Notes: generated from the sequence alone by a model not told the origin. 64,000 nucleotides of DNA from Candidatus Nomurabacteria bacterium (GCA_031425235.1 JANPIZ010000001.1:27731-91730), one strand, 5' to 3'; shown: positions 3,001 to 46,581, numbered from the stretch's first letter. Numbers and translations are program-made.

Positions 3001-4857
3001 AGATAAACCAGTAGTATTACCAATGAAATTAAAGTTACCACCGTTCATAGTCAGAGCGGCTGAATCACTAATACGGTTATAAATTGCGATAGAAGAATCA
3101 TCGAGGGTGAGTGTTCCACCAGAATTGATAGAGATAGTAGAAAGAGGAATGGCTCCAGCACCGCTTAGTGTGAGAGTACCCCTATTAATAATAGTAGTTC
3201 CAGTGTAATTACTAAAGGATTGGATTGTTAACGTACCTGTATCATTTTTCGTTAGAGTGGCTGATGTACCATAGATAGGTGCTGATGAAGTAAAAGTAGT
3301 ATTCCCCGCACCACCTATTGTAAGCCCTACAGCTGCTGCAGAAAGACCTTTAGCGTCAATAGTCAAAGTCGTTCCAGTGTCTGACATGATCATAGGCACT
3401 GTACCGAGAGTAAGTAAACCTGTGAGAGTATTGTTACCTGTTCTATTTCTAATAGCTCCAGTATATAGGTGTCCAGTTCCAGAAAAAGTTATATATTCAG
3501 GTATAGAGAGTCCACTACCATTTATCTGAAGTGTAGCACCAGCAGTGACTGTGGTAATACCATCGATAAGACCGAGGGCAGTGCTGTTTTGAATTTCTAA
3601 AATACCCAAGCTCACAGTCGTAGCACCAGTGTATAAATTCGGCCTCGTAAGTACCACAGTCCCCGGCGTGCTTTTTGTTATTGCTCCACCGTCACCAGCA
3701 ATAATTGCACTAATAGTACCCGCATACACTGTCCAAGTAGCACTAGAAAGTATTCCAGAAGTACCGGTAATAGTTCCGCTTGCTAAGTCTAGTGTACCTA
3801 AAGTAACTGGTCCGACCATGTCTGAAAAGGTCGCAATGTCTAGTGTTCCGCCAGTAACTGTGACCGCACCTGAAAGAATGGCATTATCTACTCCATACAC
3901 AATAGTACCAGCGTTAATAGTCAATAAGCCTGTGTTTGTATTTGGAAAATTATAAGTGACAGTACCGGCACCATTTTTAGTAATTGTGCCGCTACCCGCG
4001 AGTGGGGCCGTAGAAAATACCATGTTTCCTGATCCATCAAAAATTAATGGTGCGTTTCCTGTCGTACCACCAGTAATAGTTAGCGTTCCAGAGTCAGAAG
4101 CTATTTCAGTACCACCAGCTGAACTTAAAGTAATAAGTCCACCAAAAGTATTTGTACCACTTATATTTCTTAGTGCACCGCCAGTACCCGAGACACCCCA
4201 ACCACGCAGAGCCAAAGCTTCGTAACTGATATTTATGTTTCCTTGTAGTTCTAAGGCAGCACCGCCGACAACTTCTGTCCCTGCAAGAATTGTTCCGAGC
4301 GCTGTCGCATGCCGGGCATTAACTACACCTACGTTTATTTTTAAAATTCCACCGAAAGTATTACCACCAGATAGCACTAATGTCCCTGTACCTTCTTTAT
4401 TCATACCACCAACTCCACTAATCCTACCGCTGATAGTCAAATTTTCGGCTGTGTTAGTAACAACAATATCTCGAGTAGCATCCACACGAATATCGAGTGC
4501 GATAGTATTGCCACCAGAAGCGACACTATCAGTAATACCCGCTAAGCCTGGCCCGAGAATAATTGCGTTACCAGACAGAGTATAACCACTACCTGTGAGA
4601 GTGATGGAGTTTATGATTGTATTTTCTGTTAAGTCGTTGGTGTTGGAAAGATTTGAGGCACCAGATGGAAAAACTAAATCGTCCCCAGTGACGGGTACAG
4701 TGCCTCCCCAGTTACTGGCTACGGACCATGAGCCACTCGTGGTCCCCGTCCAGGTTCTGGTTGCAGCTTCTGCCTTATTTGAATTTACAAAAAATATTAA
4801 TCCAAAGATAAAAAATATTGTGGAAAATTTTATTATTTTTTTAAAATTAATTTTCAT
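1..4857 (-). CDS. Giant secreted Gly/Thr-rich beta-helical surface protein, N-terminal part (at least 1618 aa). Its C-terminus and stop lie beyond the window start. It carries autotransporter-associated (PATR-like) beta-strand repeats.
   Basis: It is not in the ORF track because no stop codon falls inside the window. All 11 plus-strand ORFs listed in 2..4882 sit in frame 2, the typical antisense shadow of one long minus-strand gene. Hand translation from the ATG at 4857 gives MKINFKKIIKFSTIFFIFGLIFFVNSNKAEAATRTWTGTTSGSWSVASNWGGTVPVTGDDLVFPSG...NKEGTGTLVLSGGNTFGG...TKNGAGTVTYNF, i.e. a signal peptide followed by GTGTLxLSGxNTF repeats. A spot check of the minus frame at 2701-2760 gives TASILKGAFGDNSLSGTGTD with no stop. 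The start lies 8 nt downstream of the preceding gene's stop. Confidence 0.7.
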   Translation of the reverse strand, partial: MKINFKKIIKFSTIFFIFGLIFFVNSNKAEAATRTWTGTTSGSWSVASNWGGTVPVTGDDLVFPSGASNLSNTNDLTENTIINSITLTGSGYTLSGNAIILGPGLAGITDSVASGGNTIALDIRVDATRDIVVTNTAENLTISGRISGVGGMNKEGTGTLVLSGGNTFGGILKINVGVVNARHATALGTILAGTEVVGGAALELQGNINISYEALALRGWGVSGTGGALRNISGTNTFGGLITLSSAGGTEIASDSGTLTITGGTTGNAPLIFDGSGNMVFSTAPLAGSGTITKNGAGTVTYNFPNTNTGLLTINAGTIVYGVDNAILSGAVTVTGGTLDIATFSDMVGPVTLGTLDLASGTITGTSGILSSATWTVYAGTISAIIAGDGGAITKSTPGTVVLTRPNLYTGATTVSLGILEIQNSTALGLIDGITTVTAGATLQINGSGLSIPEYITFSGTGHLYTGAIRNRTGNNTLTGLLTLGTVPMIMSDTGTTLTIDAKGLSAAAVGLTIGGAGNTTFTSSAPIYGTSATLTKNDTGTLTIQSFSNYTGTTIINRGTLTLSGAGAIPLSTISINSGGTLTLDDSSIAIYNRISDSAALTMNGGNFNFIGNTTGLSMETAGALTLSTGHNVVTVTPGAGGSTTMTFASFARTAGASVLFRGTSLGSTPGPNVSTLMFTTAPVSPALAGAAGAAGTTTASILKGAFGDNSLSGTGTDMVTYNLGNTNGLRLLNGAGFSGEYSTTLTTNTNVKLAANVAASTVSVNSLILNGFGITNGAATITISNGGSLAGNILINSATDIAGASTTLGITTSELNIHATANSTISAVIGTAAAGSLTVSGTGNVTLSTASLHTGLTSVNGATLTYGISNALSSGGITVNGGTLNINGSSDTVGAVILQNGTITGSTGVLSGTSYSLREGTVSAIINGASAVTVVATNAPANATVTLSRDNTYTGVTTITSGILKLGAAGGGTNTPLGTTAAGTTIAAGAALDLNGFTLGTAEGITSMTGLGFGPGTTVANGNSNMGALMNTSGTPASYSGAITLAAASRINADYGALTISSAISGATIGLTIGGFSDSTFSGVIGTTSGTLTKDGIGVLTLSNGSSSYTGATTISVGTVKIGVASVGGTNSPLGTTGGITTVALGARLDLNGINLGIAEPLTINGVGYGLGDFASGALMNSSGSAVTFTGLITLGAASTIKADYGDINLTAAGTITGSGFGLTLGGSGVGTLSSIVGTVAGTVTKIGTGTWTFSGQSTYTGATAVNLGTYKLGATGGATNTPFGTNAGGAVVYTGAVLDFNSFTMPTTEALTINGRGINDGGALIGSSGTFGGTIAQGTDSRITNASGTMTITGAVSGAFLLYIGGAGNITTSAVFPAVALGITKQGAGTLTVTGANLYTGATRVDTGTFAYAATTTLVGTNLVVNGGIFNSGANADTIGTVTLVGGTITNSAALTGTAYTLESGTVSGILAGAIAVVKNTNNTVTLTGVNTISSTTTINAGTLTLSGSGSATTTTITVNLGGTLTLDNTSTAVASRLGDALALTMNGGNFNFIGNTAGASSETTGALTLASGRNVVTVTPGAGGSTTMTFASFSRTAGAGVLLRGTSFGSAPAAN

Positions 4858-35311: not shown

Positions 35312-35569
35312 ATGTCTAGTAAGGAAATAAAAAATAGCACGGTGCACAAAATACCGCCAGACTTACAAAAAGCCCTTATATCTACAAAAACTGCTTTTTC
35401 GATATGGGAAGACATAACACCACTCGCACGTAATGAGTGGATATGTTGGGTTACCTCTCCTAAAAAGGAGGAAACAAGAATTATTCGTATAGAGAAAGCT
35501 ATTTCAAAACTTACGGGTGGAATGCGTCGCCCTTGTTGCTGGGCTGGGTGCACTCACCGTACAAAATAA
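35312..35569 (+). CDS. YdeI/OmpD-associated family protein
   Basis: 85 aa. IPPDLQKAL...AFSIWEDITPLARNEWICWVTSPKKEETRIIRIEKAISKL fits the YdeI pattern. Confidence 0.5.
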   Translation: MSSKEIKNSTVHKIPPDLQKALISTKTAFSIWEDITPLARNEWICWVTSPKKEETRIIRIEKAISKLTGGMRRPCCWAGCTHRTK

Positions 35570-37517: not shown

Positions 37518-38063
37518 TTATTGACAAGATCCTTCCGTCCAAGAATCCGCGGATTCAAGAGCTTTTTTTATTTTTTCGTTTCCTGGATATTTATTTAATA
37601 AGTTCAATTTATCATTTTCAATCGTATAACATTGGTCTGCCTCAATACCCTGTTCAACTTGAACCTGTCTTTCTGGACCACCATAACCAGATTCTTCGCT
37701 CCAATGATTACATATCATAATTCTGTTGACTATCGGCTCAAGATCGCTTGGTAGGCCTTGAGTTATATTTTTTGAAAATTCCCCGTCTGTGCAAGAAGAT
37801 TTTTTAATAACAATACTTGAGTCAATAAGAGTGTTGAACTGACCCCCTGTTGGTCTTTCATTGCTCTTTGAATCTTCCCCAGTTGGGATATCGCCATTTT
37901 GAAATGTATCCTTGAGGCCTGTCTGTTGAACCTCGATAGGTTTATCTCCTTTTTCAAAATAACTTTTTAATATATTGCGATTAACAACTGCAAATGTTCC
38001 ACCGCCGACTAAAACTACAATTAATATAATAATTAAGGGAGCAAATCCTTTTTGATTTTTCAT
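37518..38063 (-). CDS. Secreted/anchored hypothetical protein with 4 Cys
   Basis: 181 aa. The N-terminus MKNQKGFAPLIIILIVVLVGG is hydrophobic. It is pilin-like but lacks the Glu at position +5. Confidence 0.45.
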   Translation of the reverse strand: MKNQKGFAPLIIILIVVLVGGGTFAVVNRNILKSYFEKGDKPIEVQQTGLKDTFQNGDIPTGEDSKSNERPTGGQFNTLIDSSIVIKKSSCTDGEFSKNITQGLPSDLEPIVNRIMICNHWSEESGYGGPERQVQVEQGIEADQCYTIENDKLNLLNKYPGNEKIKKALESADSWTEGSCQ

Positions 38064-38065
38064 AT

Positions 38066-38185
38066 ATAAATTTTATCACAAAAGAGAAGACCCAGCTACT
38101 CCAAGCTTGAGGTAGACAAGCCATCAAGGCGTTTTCACTTTCTTTACTATTATTTTCAATTTTTATCACCAGTGCATGCACTTTT
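38066..38185 (-). pseudogene. marR remnant (internally deleted copy of the MarR gene at 42271..42753)
   Basis: 38101-38185 matches 42341-42425 at about 85% nucleotide identity. The residual translation MHALVIKIENNSKESENALMA compares with MarR GHAFVIQIEKIISKESEKWLDG. The MarR start-codon region is also retained near 38195-38215. Confidence 0.5.
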
Positions 38186-38273
38186 TTGTATTTTAAACAT
38201 GTTTAAGATGTTTATAGGTATCCTTATATAAACTTTTCCACAGGTAGTTTATAGTACTTTTTTTTCGGGTGTG

Positions 38274-38298
38274 ATATACTTAAGTGAGTTAAGTATAT
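38274..38298. promoter_or_regulatory. Predicted MarR operator copy A (ATATACTTAA-gtgag-TTAAGTATAT) upstream of the DUF4331 gene
   Basis: 10-bp inverted-repeat arms. They are near-identical to the perfect palindrome at 42808..42830. Confidence 0.5.
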
Positions 38299-38380
38299 GG
38301 TCGATGTGTAATATTATAAAATATGTGTAAAATATTATTTTCAAATAATATTTAATTATTAACTAATAAAAAATAAAAAC

Positions 38381-39997
38381 ATGATAAATAAAAAAATAAT
38401 TTTTGGATTTATTGCAGTGGCGCTCGTGATCTCAACTACTTTCCAAGTATTTGCTTCAAGCCACCGAGAAGCACCACTTATTAGTGGTGATCCAAAAGTT
38501 GATGCTACAGATCTATATGCATTCGTAAGTCCCGACAACAAAGAGATGGTGACACTTATCGCAAATTATATCCCATTTGAAGAACCTGCAGGAGGTCCAA
38601 ACTTTGATTCTTTTGATGATAAAGCTCTGTACGAAATAAAAATAGATAATGATGGTGATGCAAAACCAGACATTGTATACCAATTTAGATTCAAAACAAC
38701 AGTTGGTAATAAAGATACATTCCTGTATAATACCGGAGCTATAAATTCTCTTTCTGATACAAATTGGAACGTTAAACAAACATATACGTTAACAAAAGTT
38801 GAAGACGGAGAAAGTGTAATTTTGGGAACTGATTTAAAAATGGCTCCTGTAAACATAGGACCTAAATCAACCCCTAATTACGCCGCACTTCAAGCACAAT
38901 CTATCAACTCTATACCGGGCGGCGGAAAAGTATTTGCAGGACAAAGTGATGATCCATTCTTCGTAGACCTTGGAAGTCTTTTTGATCTTCTTACTATACG
39001 AAAACTTCCTGGAAATAATGGAGGTGGAGTAAACACTACTCAAGGATCAAATGTTCATTCATTGGCACTTCAAATTCCAACGAAAGAACTTACGAGCAAT
39101 AAAATTATGCCGACAGATCCAAAAGATCCAAAAGCAGTGATTGGGGTTTGGACTACTGCATCTAGGCAAGCAACAAGAGTCCTTGGATCATCTGGCACTC
39201 AAAATGATTCAGGAGATTGGATCCAAGTTTCAAGACTTGGCTCTCCACTCGTGAATGAAGTTGTAGCTCCTTTAGGTGCTAAAGATTTATTTAATTCTTC
39301 AAAGCCAGAAAATGACGCTCAGTTCGCAAATGCAGTAACTGATCCTGAGGTTGGAAAACTTCTAAAAGCTTTATATGGAATAAAAGTTCCTCCTCAAGGC
39401 GTGTTTGGTTCACCATCACAGAGAGATGATCTTATAGCTATATTCCTAACTGGAATTCCAGATCTTACAAAGTCAGAAATAGGAACTCCGGCAGAAGAAC
39501 TTAGATTGAATGTAGCTATCCCTCCAACAATAAACCCAAACAAAATGGGAGTATTAGGAGGTGACATGCAGGGATATCCAAACGGGCGAAGACTTGGTGA
39601 CGATGTAATAGATATTTCTTTGCAAGCAATTGCAGGAGCAGCATATCCCCTTTTTCACCCAGATTTTGTTGTTGACCCAACTGGAGCAAAACTCGGTGAT
39701 GGAGTAGACACCAATGATGTTGCATTTAGAGGATCGTTCCCCTATTTAGCAATCCCAAATCAAGGATATGAAAGTGTGCCGCATGCAAAAAATGGTGTGG
39801 CGCAATGCGGAATCGGTAGGACTCTCACACGAGGCACTAAAGGCGAAGATGTACGATGTCTCCAAAGATATTTAATCCTTAAAGGCTTTCTAGGAGCAAA
39901 TGGAGCTGATGGTAATTTTGGACTTATGACACAGAAAGCTGTAATACAATGGCAAACAAGTTCTAATATGTCACAAACTGGATCAGTGACGAACTAA
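38381..39997 (+). CDS. DUF4331-family secreted protein with a C-terminal peptidoglycan-binding domain
   Basis: 538 aa. After the signal peptide comes the hallmark SSHREAPLIS. The C-terminus RGTKGEDVRCLQRYLILKGFLGANGADGNFGLMTQKAVIQWQ is PG_binding_1-like. Confidence 0.7.
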   Translation: MINKKIIFGFIAVALVISTTFQVFASSHREAPLISGDPKVDATDLYAFVSPDNKEMVTLIANYIPFEEPAGGPNFDSFDDKALYEIKIDNDGDAKPDIVYQFRFKTTVGNKDTFLYNTGAINSLSDTNWNVKQTYTLTKVEDGESVILGTDLKMAPVNIGPKSTPNYAALQAQSINSIPGGGKVFAGQSDDPFFVDLGSLFDLLTIRKLPGNNGGGVNTTQGSNVHSLALQIPTKELTSNKIMPTDPKDPKAVIGVWTTASRQATRVLGSSGTQNDSGDWIQVSRLGSPLVNEVVAPLGAKDLFNSSKPENDAQFANAVTDPEVGKLLKALYGIKVPPQGVFGSPSQRDDLIAIFLTGIPDLTKSEIGTPAEELRLNVAIPPTINPNKMGVLGGDMQGYPNGRRLGDDVIDISLQAIAGAAYPLFHPDFVVDPTGAKLGDGVDTNDVAFRGSFPYLAIPNQGYESVPHAKNGVAQCGIGRTLTRGTKGEDVRCLQRYLILKGFLGANGADGNFGLMTQKAVIQWQTSSNMSQTGSVTN

Positions 39998-40115
39998 TAG
40001 ATATATGTTGCTAAAAAATAAATCAGCAAGTAAGCATTAAGATTTATTTTAAGTGCTATCATGAAAACATAAAATGAGCATGATAGCACGATCAAATAAA
40101 CCTTTATAAATAATT

Positions 40116-41414
40116 ATGCAATCATTTTTCAAAAAAAAATATTTGATATCACTTATATTGTCTATCACGCTCGGCGCCGTCATAGTGGTTGCTAATATAT
40201 GGTTTGCCCATAATAGATCGTCTGCTCCCGAAAATGGGAATCTAGACCAAACTACACTCGATGGTCAAATAAATGCTTTAACTCTAGCAATCGAATGGAG
40301 TCCGGAGAATGTTAAAAATTATATCGATCTAGGTAGCTTGTATCTGCAGAAAGTGCGTGAAACTGCCGACACATCTTATTATCAAAAAATAGATACGCTC
40401 ATGGATAAAGCCTATAAGATTGATCCTTTCCATCCAGATATCCCAGCTATTCAAGGAAATATGAATCTCGGCAAACATAACTTTATTCAAGCAAAAACTG
40501 ACGCAGAAAAAGCTATTCTCTTAAACCCTGCTAATCATTTATATTACGGACTACTTGGTGATGCTGAAATAGAACTAGGACATTATCAAGAAGCCGTAGA
40601 GGCATTCCAAAAGATGGTGGATATCAGGCCATCATATTCTTCTTATATACGTATCGCCTATGTTAGGGAATTATATGGTGATATTAAAGGTGCTGAGGAA
40701 TTTTTAAATCTCGCAATAAACTCTGGCAGCAGTTTTAAGGAAAATATAGCTTTTGCTTATGTTGAACTAGGGAAAATCCATATGCGAGATAATTTAACCG
40801 AGGGAGCCTCAGATTTTAACATAGCACTTACTATATTGCCTGGTTACGCTCCTGCCCTAAGCGGTTTAGGTAAAATATATTTTTTTAAAGGGGATTTTTT
40901 AGAAGCAGAAAAATATTTTAAACAAGCATACAATGCAATTCCTAGTGCAGAACATGCTACCAATTTGGCTGACTTCTATTTCAAACAAGGAGAGCAAAAT
41001 ATGTCTACTCAATATCTTACACTCGCACAGGTAGCATATGACAGTTCGAGATCAAGTGAAGTAAATGCTGACCTTGAAGAATCGCTCTTTTTGAGTGATC
41101 ATGATATTTCTCTTGACCGAGCTGTCGCTATGGCTCAAAATACATATGCTGAAAGAAAAGGAATCTATGTAGCCGATACTCTATCATGGGCTCTATATAA
41201 GAGTGGAAAAACAGAAGAAGCTTTACGTTATTCCAAAGAAGCTTTACAATTAGGTGAGACAGATCCTCTCATACTTTTCCATCAAGGAATGATTGCATTT
41301 AAAAGTGGTAACATGAAAACAGCTAAAAAATACCTCACTAAATCTCGTGATATTAATCCAAATATTTCAATTATTAACGCATCCATACTAAAACAAACTC
41401 TTTTGAGCTTGTAA
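40116..41414 (+). CDS. Tetratricopeptide-repeat protein with an N-terminal TM anchor
   Basis: 432 aa with repeated A/Y/L TPR-like helices. Confidence 0.6.
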   Translation: MQSFFKKKYLISLILSITLGAVIVVANIWFAHNRSSAPENGNLDQTTLDGQINALTLAIEWSPENVKNYIDLGSLYLQKVRETADTSYYQKIDTLMDKAYKIDPFHPDIPAIQGNMNLGKHNFIQAKTDAEKAILLNPANHLYYGLLGDAEIELGHYQEAVEAFQKMVDIRPSYSSYIRIAYVRELYGDIKGAEEFLNLAINSGSSFKENIAFAYVELGKIHMRDNLTEGASDFNIALTILPGYAPALSGLGKIYFFKGDFLEAEKYFKQAYNAIPSAEHATNLADFYFKQGEQNMSTQYLTLAQVAYDSSRSSEVNADLEESLFLSDHDISLDRAVAMAQNTYAERKGIYVADTLSWALYKSGKTEEALRYSKEALQLGETDPLILFHQGMIAFKSGNMKTAKKYLTKSRDINPNISIINASILKQTLLSL

Positions 41415-41437
41415 GCATTTCTTAAAAAGATCGTAAT

Positions 41438-42232
41438 ATGAAAAAAATTATTATTGCGTTATTCTTATTATTATCTTTCTTGCCCCCCGTATTGGCAGAT
41501 GCCCACGAACTTATTCCGAAGGCACTACAAGAATATATAGCGGCAAACCCAAATGCTACCCCTCAAGAAATAAAAGCATTTGCAGACAATCAGTCTCCAG
41601 AATTTGCGGAAAAATTCAAAGATGGTGCAGAGATTCTACAGATAGTAAGACAGCCAGATACTTCTTTTTTTGATAACTTTAAAGATTTTTTTAAAATCGG
41701 CGTTAGTCATATTTTAGCTGGCTTAGATCATATTTTATTTGTTCTTACTTTATTGTTTGTGTTTAAGAATTGGAAAGAAATCCTAAACCTTACTGGAACA
41801 TTTACGATTGCACACAGTATTACTCTTGTCTTAGCTGGCTCCGGTATTCTTACCTTAAGTCCTTCTCTTGTGGAGCCGCTCATTGCCCTCTCTATAGCAT
41901 ATATGGCTATTACAAGTGTATTTTTAAAGGGAACTCGATATATTGGCGAGCAAAGTGGCAAAATAGCCTCAGTTTTCTTTTTTGGGCTCTTCCATGGACT
42001 CGGTTTTGCTGGACTTATTCAAGAGATCAGCATCCCCACAAACTATGTAATATCTTCACTTGTTGCTTTTAATTTTGGTATAGAAATCGGACAACTTGTT
42101 ATTGTTGGACTTGTTTTCCCTGTTGCTTACTACTGCAGAGATAAAACCTGGTACCCTCGAAGTATAAAAATATTAGCTTTTTTTATAACGACAATTGCTC
42201 TCTTTTGGTTTATAGAAAGGATAATAGGATAA
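41438..42232 (+). CDS. HupE/UreJ-family (Ni/Co transporter-like) membrane protein
   Basis: 264 aa with the motifs HILAGLDHILFVL and FTIAHSITL. Confidence 0.7.
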   Translation: MKKIIIALFLLLSFLPPVLADAHELIPKALQEYIAANPNATPQEIKAFADNQSPEFAEKFKDGAEILQIVRQPDTSFFDNFKDFFKIGVSHILAGLDHILFVLTLLFVFKNWKEILNLTGTFTIAHSITLVLAGSGILTLSPSLVEPLIALSIAYMAITSVFLKGTRYIGEQSGKIASVFFFGLFHGLGFAGLIQEISIPTNYVISSLVAFNFGIEIGQLVIVGLVFPVAYYCRDKTWYPRSIKILAFFITTIALFWFIERIIG

Positions 42233-42270
42233 AAAGTTGTATTCAGTCGTTCCGATAATTACAAACAAGA

Positions 42271-42753
42271 CTAATGAAGACTGTTCGCGCTAAATCTAGA
42301 TTTTTCAGTAAGTTTTTTTAAGACTTTTACAAATGTACCCACTTGAGAGATAGACAAACCATCAAGCCATTTTTCACTTTCTTTACTAATTATTTTTTCA
42401 ATTTGTATCACAAACGCATGACCTTGTTTCGTTAAAGTAATTTTCTTCATTCTTTTGTCGGTGGGGTTTTTGCTATATACTACAAATCTTTTCTTAACGA
42501 ATTTTGAAGCAAGAATTGTCACAAATGGGGCCTCAACCCCGAGAATATCTGCAAATTTTTTTAGAGAAACTGATTCTTTTTGATCGTGAAGCATCCCCAA
42601 AAATACCCATTCAACAGCAGATATCCTAAATGGCTTGAGTAGTAAGCTCGTTTTTATATTCACTGTTTTGTAGGCTTTGTTCTGCAATAGGCCAAGTGCG
42701 TAGGTCTTTGCATATCCTTCTCTTTGTATATTTTTGAACATGTTTGTAGGCAT
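42271..42753 (-). CDS. MarR-family transcriptional regulator
   Basis: 160 aa with a winged-HTH profile. It is divergent from msrB, and a perfect palindrome lies in the shared intergenic region. Confidence 0.7.
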   Translation of the reverse strand: MPTNMFKNIQREGYAKTYALGLLQNKAYKTVNIKTSLLLKPFRISAVEWVFLGMLHDQKESVSLKKFADILGVEAPFVTILASKFVKKRFVVYSKNPTDKRMKKITLTKQGHAFVIQIEKIISKESEKWLDGLSISQVGTFVKVLKKLTEKSRFSANSLH

Positions 42754-42790
42754 CCCTTAAGTATACTTTTCCACAGGTAGCTTGCAATAC

Positions 42791-42830
42791 CTATGTTTTT
42801 AGTGTACTATACTTAAGTAACTTAAGTATA
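42791..42830 (+). promoter_or_regulatory. msrB promoter (TTGCAA-17-TACTAT) with an overlapping perfect 23-bp palindromic operator TATACTTAAG-TAA-CTTAAGTATA (42808..42830)
   Basis: All elements read directly from the sequence. The operator overlaps the -10 box and the +1 region, the classic arrangement for MarR repression. Confidence 0.55.
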
Positions 42831-42859
42831 TGATCAATACATACTATTGTCAAATTAAA

Positions 42860-43456
42860 AAAATGAAAACCAAAAAAATAATTTTTATTTCAATTGTAAT
42901 AGTTGCACTAGGTTTATTAATATACGCTGTCTCAAGAACAAGATCTAACACAACTGACTCAACTATTTCTCGAAACGAAACCAAACAATGGATCCTACCA
43001 ACAGAAAGCTCTCCATACATAAAACCATCAGAGGATGCGCTCCGCAAAATACTTCCACCTCTTGCATATAACATTACCCAGCAAAATGCTACAGAAATCC
43101 CCTACTCAAACGAGTATGTTAAAAAATATGAAGCAGGAATATATGTCGACATCGTATCGGGTGAACCACTCTTTTCTTCAAGCGACAAATACGATTCTGG
43201 CACAGGCTGGCCTTCATTTGTGAAACCTATAACACCTGACGCGATTACCTCTAAAATCGATAAAGAATTGGGAATTGAAAGAATAGAAGTCAGGTCAAAG
43301 TACGCTGATTCTCATCTTGGACATATCTTTGACGATGGCCCCGCGGATCGAGGAGGAAAAAGATACTGCATTAATGGTTTTGCTCTTCGCTTTGTTGCCA
43401 AAGACCAAATGGTCGCGAGCGGATACGGAGAATACCTAAAATATGTATCGAAATAA
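42860..43456 (+). CDS. msrB: Peptide methionine sulfoxide reductase B (SelR domain), membrane-anchored
   Basis: GIYVDIVSGEPLFSSSDKYDSGTGWPSFVKPI...HLGHIFDDGP...RYCINGFALRF. I prefer the internal start MKTKKIIF; the track ORF begins at 42830. Confidence 0.85.
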   Translation, partial: KMKTKKIIFISIVIVALGLLIYAVSRTRSNTTDSTISRNETKQWILPTESSPYIKPSEDALRKILPPLAYNITQQNATEIPYSNEYVKKYEAGIYVDIVSGEPLFSSSDKYDSGTGWPSFVKPITPDAITSKIDKELGIERIEVRSKYADSHLGHIFDDGPADRGGKRYCINGFALRFVAKDQMVASGYGEYLKYVSK

Positions 43457-45035: not shown

Positions 45036-45107
45036 CTCCGGGGGTAGGGATCGAACCTACGACCAATCGCTTAACAGGCGACCGCTCTACCACTGAGCTA
45101 CCCCGGA
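45036..45107 (-). tRNA. tRNA-Asn (anticodon GTT)
   Basis: Hand-folded cloverleaf. The acceptor stem is TCCGGGG/CCCCGGA, the D-arm GCTC-AGTGGTA-GAGC, the anticodon loop CTGTTAA and the T-arm GTAGG-TTCGATC-CCTAC. No CCA is encoded. Confidence 0.8.
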
Positions 45108-46493: not shown

Positions 46494-46508
46494 TTATTTG
46501 TGTTTTGT

Positions 46509-46581
46509 GGACCCTACAGGACTCGAACCTGCCACCTCCTCATTGCAAATGAGGCGCTCTAGCCAGATGAGCTAAGGGCCC
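46509..46581 (-). tRNA. tRNA-Ala (anticodon TGC)
   Basis: Hand-folded. The acceptor stem is GGGCCCT/AGGGTCC with one G-U pair. The D-arm is GCTC-ATCTGGCTA-GAGC, the anticodon stem-loop CCTCA-TTTGCAA-TGAGG and the T-arm GCAGG-TTCGAGT-CCTGT. Confidence 0.8.

Follow-up and report, generated by a model that had tools for sequence, protein, structure and literature searches.

A duplicated marR-operator module with one decayed marR copy in a Nomurabacteria genome, and a candidate MarR regulon in Patescibacteria

Described systems and the locus

Dimers of MarR regulators usually recognise palindromes of 20-23 base pairs (bp) with arms of 9-11 nucleotides (nt). A locus with such palindromes was analysed in a stretch of 64,000 nt (the window) from a Candidatus Nomurabacteria bacterium (GCA_031425235.1, JANPIZ010000001.1:27731-91730). 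An intact marR gene and a palindrome, operator B, precede msrB, and a second palindrome, operator A, precedes an operon for DUF4331, TPR and HupE/UreJ proteins together with the remnant of a second marR gene. As in the autoregulated repressor systems MarR-marO of E. coli, SlyA and OhrR-ohrA, the window encodes a small homologue of 160 amino acids (aa), and the palindrome between marR and a divergent target overlaps the -10 hexamer of the putative marR promoter. The window MarR differs from the named MarR/SlyA regulators in lacking an equivalog match (47.6 bits for SlyA vs a cut-off of 120) and conserved Cys or His residues. Neither the operator consensus TATACTTAA-N5-TTAAGTATA nor the target set was described in the literature searched; the regulon is likewise absent from it, and no paper in it mentions DUF4331.

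The CcdA-thioredoxin-MsrAB system of Streptococcus pneumoniae is a membrane-anchored, extracytoplasmic methionine sulfoxide reductase system. The window MsrB resembles it in its N-terminal anchor, and in a locus from another genome (L170) msrB follows a thioredoxin gene and a DipZ/CcdA-like gene; in the window, by contrast, msrB stands alone behind its own operator and lacks an MsrA domain. It is a general evolutionary pattern that a redundant duplicate of a transcription-factor gene is lost and its cis-element retained. The locus agrees with it in having two modules of factor and site, of which one factor gene is decayed and both sites are kept. It differs in that the decayed copy adjoins the target with the most regular link to this regulator elsewhere. 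In the SigK/RskA regulon of the Mycobacterium tuberculosis complex (mpb83-dipZ-mpb70), secreted fasciclin-domain proteins and a DipZ-type membrane thiol-disulfide protein are under one dedicated regulator (PMC10540498). The pairing of fasciclin with a DipZ-like protein recurs at the operator locus L048 (operator-marR-fasciclin-DipZ-like), whereas the regulators differ, with an extracytoplasmic function (ECF) sigma factor and an anti-sigma factor there and a predicted MarR repressor here. DUF4331-TPR-HupE is absent from the SigK targets listed in PMC10540498, and the window has neither a fasciclin nor a DipZ gene.

Two copies of a marR-operator module

The window contains two MarR modules, B intact and A decayed, and a single MarR would probably repress the DUF4331 operon through operator A and both msrB and its own gene through operator B. 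The features concerned are the following.

42271-42753, minus strand: intact marR, 160 aa, no Cys; member of a Patescibacteria-rich MarR/SlyA-like clade
42808-42830: operator B, TATACTTAAGTAACTTAAGTATA; perfect 11+1+11 palindrome TATACTTAAGT-A-ACTTAAGTATA
38275-38297: operator A, TATACTTAAGTGAGTTAAGTATA; arms TATACTTAA-GTGAG-TTAAGTATA, 83 nt 5' of the DUF4331 start codon
38070-38230, minus strand: marR pseudogene remnant (copy A), from alignment with copy B and a three-way alignment with locus L064
38381-39997, plus strand: DUF4331 protein with signal peptide and C-terminal PG_binding_1 domain (Pfam, DUF4331 517 bits)
40116-41414, plus strand: membrane-anchored TPR protein, second gene of the operon (Pfam; conserved order)
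41438-42232, plus strand: HupE/UreJ_2 membrane protein, third gene of the operon (Pfam, HupE_UreJ_2 155 bits)
42863-43456, plus strand: msrB with N-terminal membrane anchor, without CxxC zinc motifs (Pfam SelR 149.7 bits; TIGR00357 182.8 bits, cut-off 113)

An earlier note on this DNA had reported that the region upstream of the DUF4331 gene matches the 3' end of marR and the marR-msrB intergenic region at about 85% identity, and had read this as a segmental duplication followed by a deletion. BLASTN of 38040-38345 against 42250-42870, a check of the kind that it had proposed, gave two collinear blocks. The first (A 38109-38187, B 42347-42429) had 68/83 identical positions (82%, E 2e-16), and the second (A 38192-38322, B 42723-42855) had 99/133 (74%, E 2e-22). 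About 293 bp of B between the blocks (42430-42722) had no counterpart in copy A. A gap-tolerant global alignment of the two copies gave 229/274 identical positions (84%), so that the earlier figure was only slightly generous. The local alignment score was 61, compared with 12.2 +/- 1.9 (maximum 20) for 373 random segments of the window and 13.7 +/- 1.8 (maximum 22) for Markov shuffles of copy A. The match is therefore not explained by AT-richness, the objection that the earlier note had itself raised. Segmental duplication of marR and its 5' intergenic region, with a later internal deletion of about 293 bp in A, is the reading supported by the two collinear blocks and the gap between them.

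Copy A has been disabled in several ways. It keeps marR codons ~1-10 and ~109-144, i.e. about 40 codons, close to the 30 or so estimated earlier, and these are split over two reading frames. On the minus strand, one frame reads KKVHALVIKIENNSKESEN, corresponding to MarR 109-127, and another LDGLSTSSLE*, corresponding to MarR 130-139; the 5' end reads IPINILNMFKIQK, compared with MPTNMFKNIQR in the intact protein. The start codon is changed from ATG to ATA, and a 9-nt micro-duplication, a frameshift and in-frame stops were found in addition. The deleted codons 11-108 comprise the N-terminal dimer helix and the whole winged helix-turn-helix (wHTH). Homology to marR at 82% and 74% DNA identity thus coincides with an ATA start, split frames, stops and loss of codons 11-108, and copy A is a pseudogene. 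Both edges of the deletion, as seen in B, carry a short CTT(T)GT-like repeat, which is compatible with deletion by slippage. The similarity of A and B fades at about 38070, close to the start (38063) of a leftward gene; copy A therefore lacks the final ~17 marR codons, in whose place stands the 5' region of this neighbouring gene.

The 23-bp palindrome TATACTTAAGTnnnTTAAGTATA occurs at two sites only in the window when up to 3 mismatches are allowed (0 expected from 100 shuffles), and the coordinates and palindrome sequences in the earlier note were correct. Operator A has 10-nt perfect arms and an imperfect centre. Operator B lies 32 nt 5' of the msrB ATG (42863) and 54 nt 5' of the marR ATG. 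Both 9-nt arms, 18 positions in all, are identical between A and B, compared with 72-82% identity in the flanks. Two insertions private to A, of 24 nt and 27 nt, lie between palindrome and DUF4331 start codon and have lengthened the distance from operator to start codon (83 nt vs 32 nt in B). These AT-rich insertions, at 38306-38373, include a near-tandem repeat, TGTGTAATATTATAAAATA / TGTGTAAAATATTATTTT.

A TATACT hexamer resembling a -10 element is present at each end of each palindrome, facing inward. The following promoter-like sites were recorded.

42825-42853, minus strand: promoter-like site for marR, TTGACA-17-TATACT (11/12, consensus match); its -10 is the right arm of operator B
38292-38320, minus strand: relic marR promoter at copy A, TTTATA-17-TATACT (9/12, consensus match only); its -10 lies inside operator A
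38272-38280, plus strand: extended -10-like element TGATATACT toward the DUF4331 gene, as read from the sequence; its hexamer is the left end of operator A
42757-42765, plus strand: extra half-site TTAAGTATA adjoining the marR start codon, degenerate in copy A

The TTGACA-17-TATACT site on the marR strand is the best promoter-like match in 37900-43000. Upstream of intact marR there is thus a 23-bp palindrome at a distance of 54 nt within which the -10 of the putative marR promoter lies, i.e. a putative palindromic operator overlapping the promoter of marR itself. The half-site at 42757-42765 contributes, on the minus strand, a second TATACT -10-like hexamer (TTGCAA-16-TATACT, 9/12). Since the sites are palindromic, TATACT also points rightward at each copy. 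TGATATACT may serve as an extended -10-like element of the DUF4331 gene and recurs at the operator upstream of DUF4331 in locus L006.

The start-codon regions of the DUF4331 gene and msrB (A 38374-38404, B 42856-42886) agree at 27/31 positions, with identical codons for KKIIF. The next best of 2,067 ATG-anchored sites in the window scored 21/31, and none elsewhere in the window reached 24/31. A duplicated block running through the start codon into the signal peptide, i.e. a swap of coding 5' ends, was nevertheless not supported, because both sets of orthologues are natively similar here (M-x-x-KKI[IV][FY] in DUF4331 orthologues, KKITLISI in the L049 MsrB); the 27/31 match may stem from the duplication or from convergence. 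A 16-nt identical run, ACTTTTCCACAGGTAG, at 38232 and 42765 was dropped as an element: it is not kept in other genomes, and by our arithmetic chance alone would yield about one such run at ~78% identity over ~200 nt. A mobile element or miniature inverted-repeat transposable element (MITE) was ruled out, as there are just two copies, made of marR and its promoter and lacking terminal repeats.

The intact protein was assigned to the MarR/SlyA family on its wHTH core by phmmer and NCBIfam. With phmmer against the PDB, SlyA 3q5f was matched at E 5e-9 over residues 38-149, and MarR, SarZ and 19 more structures were matched as well. The NCBIfam SlyA model gave E 1.6e-12 at the score given above, so that the protein is not a SlyA equivalog, and it stayed under every NCBIfam equivalog cut-off. 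Its length of 160 aa is within the range of small MarR-type proteins (about 140-170 aa). A word-indexed search of 5.8 billion proteins found no close relative, the window MarR matching only itself; a scan of its peptides against genome contigs gave no match, and exact-sequence look-ups for close relatives of the window genome gave no contig. A HMMER scan of cluster representatives recovered 734 relatives at E<=1e-3 and 192 at E<=1e-10, mostly of 140-170 aa, the best being 46% identical. An alignment of 149 family members showed an N-terminal TY-x-GLLQ-x-KAYR-x-L motif, conserved D99 and R101, and conserved Glu columns E48, E74 and E119 (not mapped onto AdcR sites). No column of it had Cys or His in 30% or more of the sequences, and 93 of the 149 had no Cys at all. 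Thiol sensing of the OhrR/MgrA/SarZ type is thus not indicated, given also that the window protein lacks Cys, and the missing His/Cys columns likewise do not indicate metal sensing of the AdcR/ZitR type.

The palindrome and its genes in other genomes

Loci collected by protein similarity were retrieved without use of the operator, and are therefore unbiased for its presence. Five loci from other Patescibacteria were found by DUF4331 similarity, all with DUF4331-TPR-HupE in the same order; this order was seen in L001, L003, L004, L005, L006, L035 and L047. In three of the five (L003, L005, L006) a marR homologue of 157 aa lies directly upstream on the same strand, and its product is 35-37% identical to the window MarR (E ~1e-23). 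All five carry a related palindrome, either in front of the operon or in front of the marR that precedes it, with a match at 19-21/22 positions in L001, L005 and L006, at 17/22 in L004, and in L003 at the core only. In L001, TATACTTAAGTAGCTTAAGTATG precedes DUF4331 by 85 nt, and there is no nearby marR. L006 has two sites, one upstream of fasciclin-marR and the other between marR and DUF4331, and L005 a single one upstream of marR-DUF4331. In L004 the site is 64 nt upstream of DUF4331, and in L003 the core alone (TTAAGTnACTTAA; TTAAGTTACTTAA) lies between marR and DUF4331.

In the 103.5 kb of the protein-similarity loci, seven sites reached at least 17/22, compared with 0.7 expected from a background of 7 per 995,741 bp of unrelated loci. 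Each of the seven is intergenic, immediately in front of a gene: in five cases this is a DUF4331, marR or fasciclin gene, in one the L004 DUF4331 gene (the weak site), and in one a pectate-lyase-like gene with a PG_binding_1 domain in L004. The latter site (4334-4356, 17/22) is ~60 nt upstream of that gene, which directly follows the DUF4331-TPR-HupE operon and may be a further regulon member.

The three msrB loci found by protein similarity gave a different result, in that none of them has a site directly upstream of msrB. In L166 a perfect operator precedes marR-fasciclin, ~4 kb before msrB; L168, where msrB follows rpsJ, and L170 (thioredoxin-DipZ-msrB) have no site. Behind an operator, msrB was found only in L049, as operator-fasciclin-msrB. 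DUF4331 thus appears as the regular partner of the operator and msrB as an occasional one.

An exact-pattern scan of 185,579 species-representative genomes gave 56 loci. Regulon genes, i.e. a marR homologue, the DUF4331 operon or fasciclin/msrB, lie no further than ~130 nt from the site in all nine loci titled with a Patescibacteria lineage, in L049 (titled 'bacterium') and in L018; the remaining 45 loci have no regulon genes beside it. The arrangements are as follows.

L012: marR on the minus strand, operator, then fasciclin-glutaredoxin in the opposite direction
L048: operator-marR-fasciclin-DipZ-like
L049: operator-fasciclin-msrB
L018: operator-fasciclin-fasciclin
L024, L035, L047: operator-DUF4331-TPR-HupE
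L031: operator-gene without assignment-cupredoxin-marR
L022: marR-operator-gene without assignment
L053: marR on the minus strand, with the operator in front of it

The DipZ-like protein of L048 combines DsbD_TM, Redoxin and Thioredoxin_10 domains. The 25-nt operator of L049 is identical to copy B and lies 50 nt upstream of fasciclin-msrB, and its MsrB is 68.5% identical to that of the window. L018 is a 2.7-kb contig labelled Nostoc sp., probably through mis-binning; at 226-1279 it has a perfect operator and, behind it, two fasciclin genes that share 67-72% identity with those of Patescibacteria.

At 18 sites a start codon follows the operator at a distance of 17-102 nt. The arms TATACTTAA/TTAAGTATA hardly change from site to site (by construction for those from the pattern search), and the central five positions vary, which places the GTGAG centre of copy A within the natural range. 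The operator recurs beside marR homologues in L005, L006, L012, L022, L031, L048, L053 and L166. From this distribution, the palindrome is taken to be the conserved operator of a Cys-free MarR clade in Patescibacteria (the Candidate Phyla Radiation, CPR).

The same pattern was also met in other settings. The exact TATACTTAAGTTACTTAAGTATA lies at 1235-1257 of a groundwater contig (L067), just upstream of a gene pair for a Phd/YefM-like antitoxin and a PIN-domain protein. In several Fictibacillus species (L010, 2570-2592, and eight other loci) the 23-nt pattern is conserved ~30 nt ahead of an MFS (DHA2-like) efflux gene of 506 aa, presumably as the operator of an unrelated regulator.

Among the target proteins of the window, MsrB is a clear member of its family (TIGR00357 score above), and a profile search found no MsrA domain. 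The deposited MsrB (P0273, 208 aa) starts at ATG 42830, inside operator B; this start is probably 11 codons too long, and the L049 orthologue agrees better with a start at ATG 42863 (MKTKKIIF...). Homologues of DUF4331 are numerous, and their conservation is unusual (~70% identity in Paceibacteria, Gracilibacteria and others). The motif SHREAP is invariant in an alignment of 33 DUF4331 sequences, right after the predicted signal peptide (window residues 26-32). Cleavage after the Ala before the nearly invariant Ser would possibly give a mature N-terminus Ser-Ser-His, similar to an amino-terminal Cu- and Ni-binding (ATCUN) motif. In the HupE_UreJ_2 proteins of the operon, A-x-A is followed by HEL(I/L)P (window residues 20-25; L035 5635-6441; L047 3153-3956), and as a lead the mature protein would begin with His, after ADA. 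Searches of the PDB gave no sequence match to DUF4331 outside the PG-binding domain; the AlphaFold model has a modest pLDDT of 63.6, and Foldseek matched only its C-terminal PG_binding domain.

The leftward neighbour of copy A is the following gene.

37518-38063, minus strand: membrane or secreted protein of 181 aa, no known family; its 5' region borders on the marR remnant

The relic marR promoter at copy A is the sole promoter-like site found upstream of it, and the gene may be transcribed from this promoter at operator A through the pseudogene. The 181-aa protein had no homology at E 1e-6 to a 176-aa protein beside the operator of L024/L035. Two tRNA genes on the minus strand (45036-45107 and 46508-46581) were the only Rfam matches in the window.

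Regulation, alternatives and meaning

The homology of the copies, the lesions of the pseudogene, and the way in which the operators are conserved and placed in genomes were observed; the following scheme of binding, repression, promoter positions and signal is predicted from the sequence. A MarR dimer made from copy B would bind both palindromes and block RNA polymerase at the -10/start-site region of both divergent promoters. Rightward, the DUF4331 operon (A) and msrB (B) would be repressed, and leftward marR itself (B) and possibly the gene for the 181-aa protein (A). An inducer signal would release MarR; this signal is expected not to be thiol oxidation, because conserved Cys residues are absent from the MarR clade. 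Once the module had been duplicated, a single trans-acting repressor would have sufficed for both sites, leaving one marR copy free to decay.

Several points weigh against this scheme. The outer operator positions of the pattern-scan loci are invariant by construction of the search. A pattern scan of metagenomes gave 101 loci, none with regulon genes, and, because a palindrome also stands beside the unrelated Phd/PIN pair in L067, the MarR regulon cannot be recognised by this sequence alone. The window protein stays just below the curated Pfam cut-offs for MarR (24.1 bits, cut-off 24.6) and MarR_2 (24.7 bits, cut-off 27). Finally, the promoter scan found no convincing -35 for the rightward promoters of the DUF4331 operon and msrB; promoters of CPR bacteria are poorly known.

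There is a small chance that operator A is a functionless, decaying relic and that the DUF4331 operon is constitutive or otherwise controlled. The imperfect centre of palindrome A (GTGAG vs GTAAC), the drifted leftward -35 (TTTATA) and the degenerate counterparts of the adjacent half-site and second -10 of B would agree with such decay. The 9-nt arms, however, are identical, and by our arithmetic 18/18 conserved positions at ~78% identity have a chance of ~1%. The five central positions vary among the operators of other genomes, with asymmetric centres in L012, L047 and L053, and DUF4331 operons of other genomes keep the site.

For the history of the two modules, the closest marR relative was compared. 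It lies on a contig of 501 bp (L064, JAKFZD011801784.1), is 80% identical in DNA to 42301-42566, and is truncated at its 5' end, upstream of which the sequence is unrelated and contains stop codons. On its 3' side it is flanked by a match to window 35482-35559, the 3' end of the gene at 35312-35569, which lies 2.5 kb left of copy A. This points to another, or an older, arrangement of genes around marR; had the four genes at 35.6-38.06 kb been inserted later, copy A would sit in the position syntenic with L064, which is a weak indication from one short contig. In the shared marR 3' segment, A and B are closer to each other than either is to L064, so the duplication, or a later conversion, would post-date the split from L064. 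Copying may have run from A to B or from B to A, with L064 hinting weakly at A as the older position.

It is unlikely that both modules are old and that their similarity outside the operator was maintained by occasional gene conversion instead of arising in one duplication. The closeness of A and B relative to L064 would fit conversion, and both targets have precedents as regulon members in other genomes. Conversion would, on the other hand, tend to erase the private lesions of A (the 293-bp deletion, the indels, the 24- and 27-nt insertions), and a divergence of 18-28% speaks against recent homogenisation. This alternative would alter the history of the locus and leave the mechanism as it is.

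The earlier note had suggested that the duplication placed the DUF4331 gene, and possibly the TPR and HupE/UreJ genes, under the MarR of msrB. Both operators are indeed plausible targets of a single MarR, so that this part can be kept. It is improbable, by contrast, that the MarR regulon at first lacked the DUF4331-TPR-HupE operon and gained it through the insertion of a copy of the msrB marR-operator module upstream of the operon. Such a capture would account for a degenerate copy A beside an intact copy B, and homology over the whole intergenic region implies that one region was overwritten by a copy of the other. However, all five DUF4331 operons found by protein similarity have a related palindrome (weak in L004, core only in L003), three of them with marR directly upstream, while msrB homologues are usually without a site. 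The L064 flank, a weak hint that A is older, matches the left neighbourhood of copy A and not that of copy B. Since DUF4331 operons elsewhere carry the site, and three of five also marR, the link between MarR and the DUF4331 operon predates the duplication.

It is very unlikely that the palindrome belongs to another factor, or forms a DNA or RNA structure, and merely travels with these genes: the same 23-mer does precede the toxin-antitoxin pair of L067 and the efflux gene of Fictibacillus, and L001, L049 and L035 have no marR on the available fragment, but marR is the sole regulator gene recurring beside the site (10 of 17 distinct operator-bearing loci including the window, with the core-only L003 counted), the site overlaps the best marR promoter match, its format is the usual one for MarR dimers, and an AT-only 10-bp stem with no T-run after it is no terminator.

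The repression of both targets by one MarR thus remains the preferred reading, and it shows no departure from known MarR systems; its main value is in the regulon and the link to DUF4331, less in the duplication. The module would belong to a regulon that recurs across Patescibacteria. The recurrent targets are DUF4331-TPR-HupE, fasciclin, a DipZ-like thiol-disulfide transporter, glutaredoxin, cupredoxin and MsrB, and the regulon products, as read from their N-termini, are all secreted or membrane-anchored. This set points to redox or metal stress of the envelope, with MsrB, glutaredoxin and DipZ as pointers to oxidative repair and HupE/UreJ and cupredoxin as pointers to metals. More tentatively, it may represent an undescribed Patescibacteria-wide regulon for metal and redox homeostasis of the envelope. 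DUF4331-TPR-HupE/UreJ would then handle Cu or Ni, an idea based on the predicted mature N-termini Ser-Ser-His of DUF4331 and His of HupE, and would be co-regulated with MsrB, the DipZ-like protein, glutaredoxin, cupredoxin and fasciclin. As part of the same tentative proposal, the dead marR would be reused as promoter and leader for leftward genes (those for the 181-aa protein, an Amphi-Trp protein and a short-chain dehydrogenase), which, if true, would extend the regulon to them.

The operator pair with one dead marR is a small, clear case of a redundant regulator duplicate with retained sites. To our knowledge, transcription control in Patescibacteria (CPR) is almost wholly unexplored, as these organisms remain uncultured and possess very few regulators. 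At this locus the sequence alone reveals a cis-element together with its likely repressor and recurrent targets, which make up a testable regulon. For DUF4331, a secreted protein ~70% identical across distant lineages for which no structural relative was found, this regulon would provide the first functional handle.

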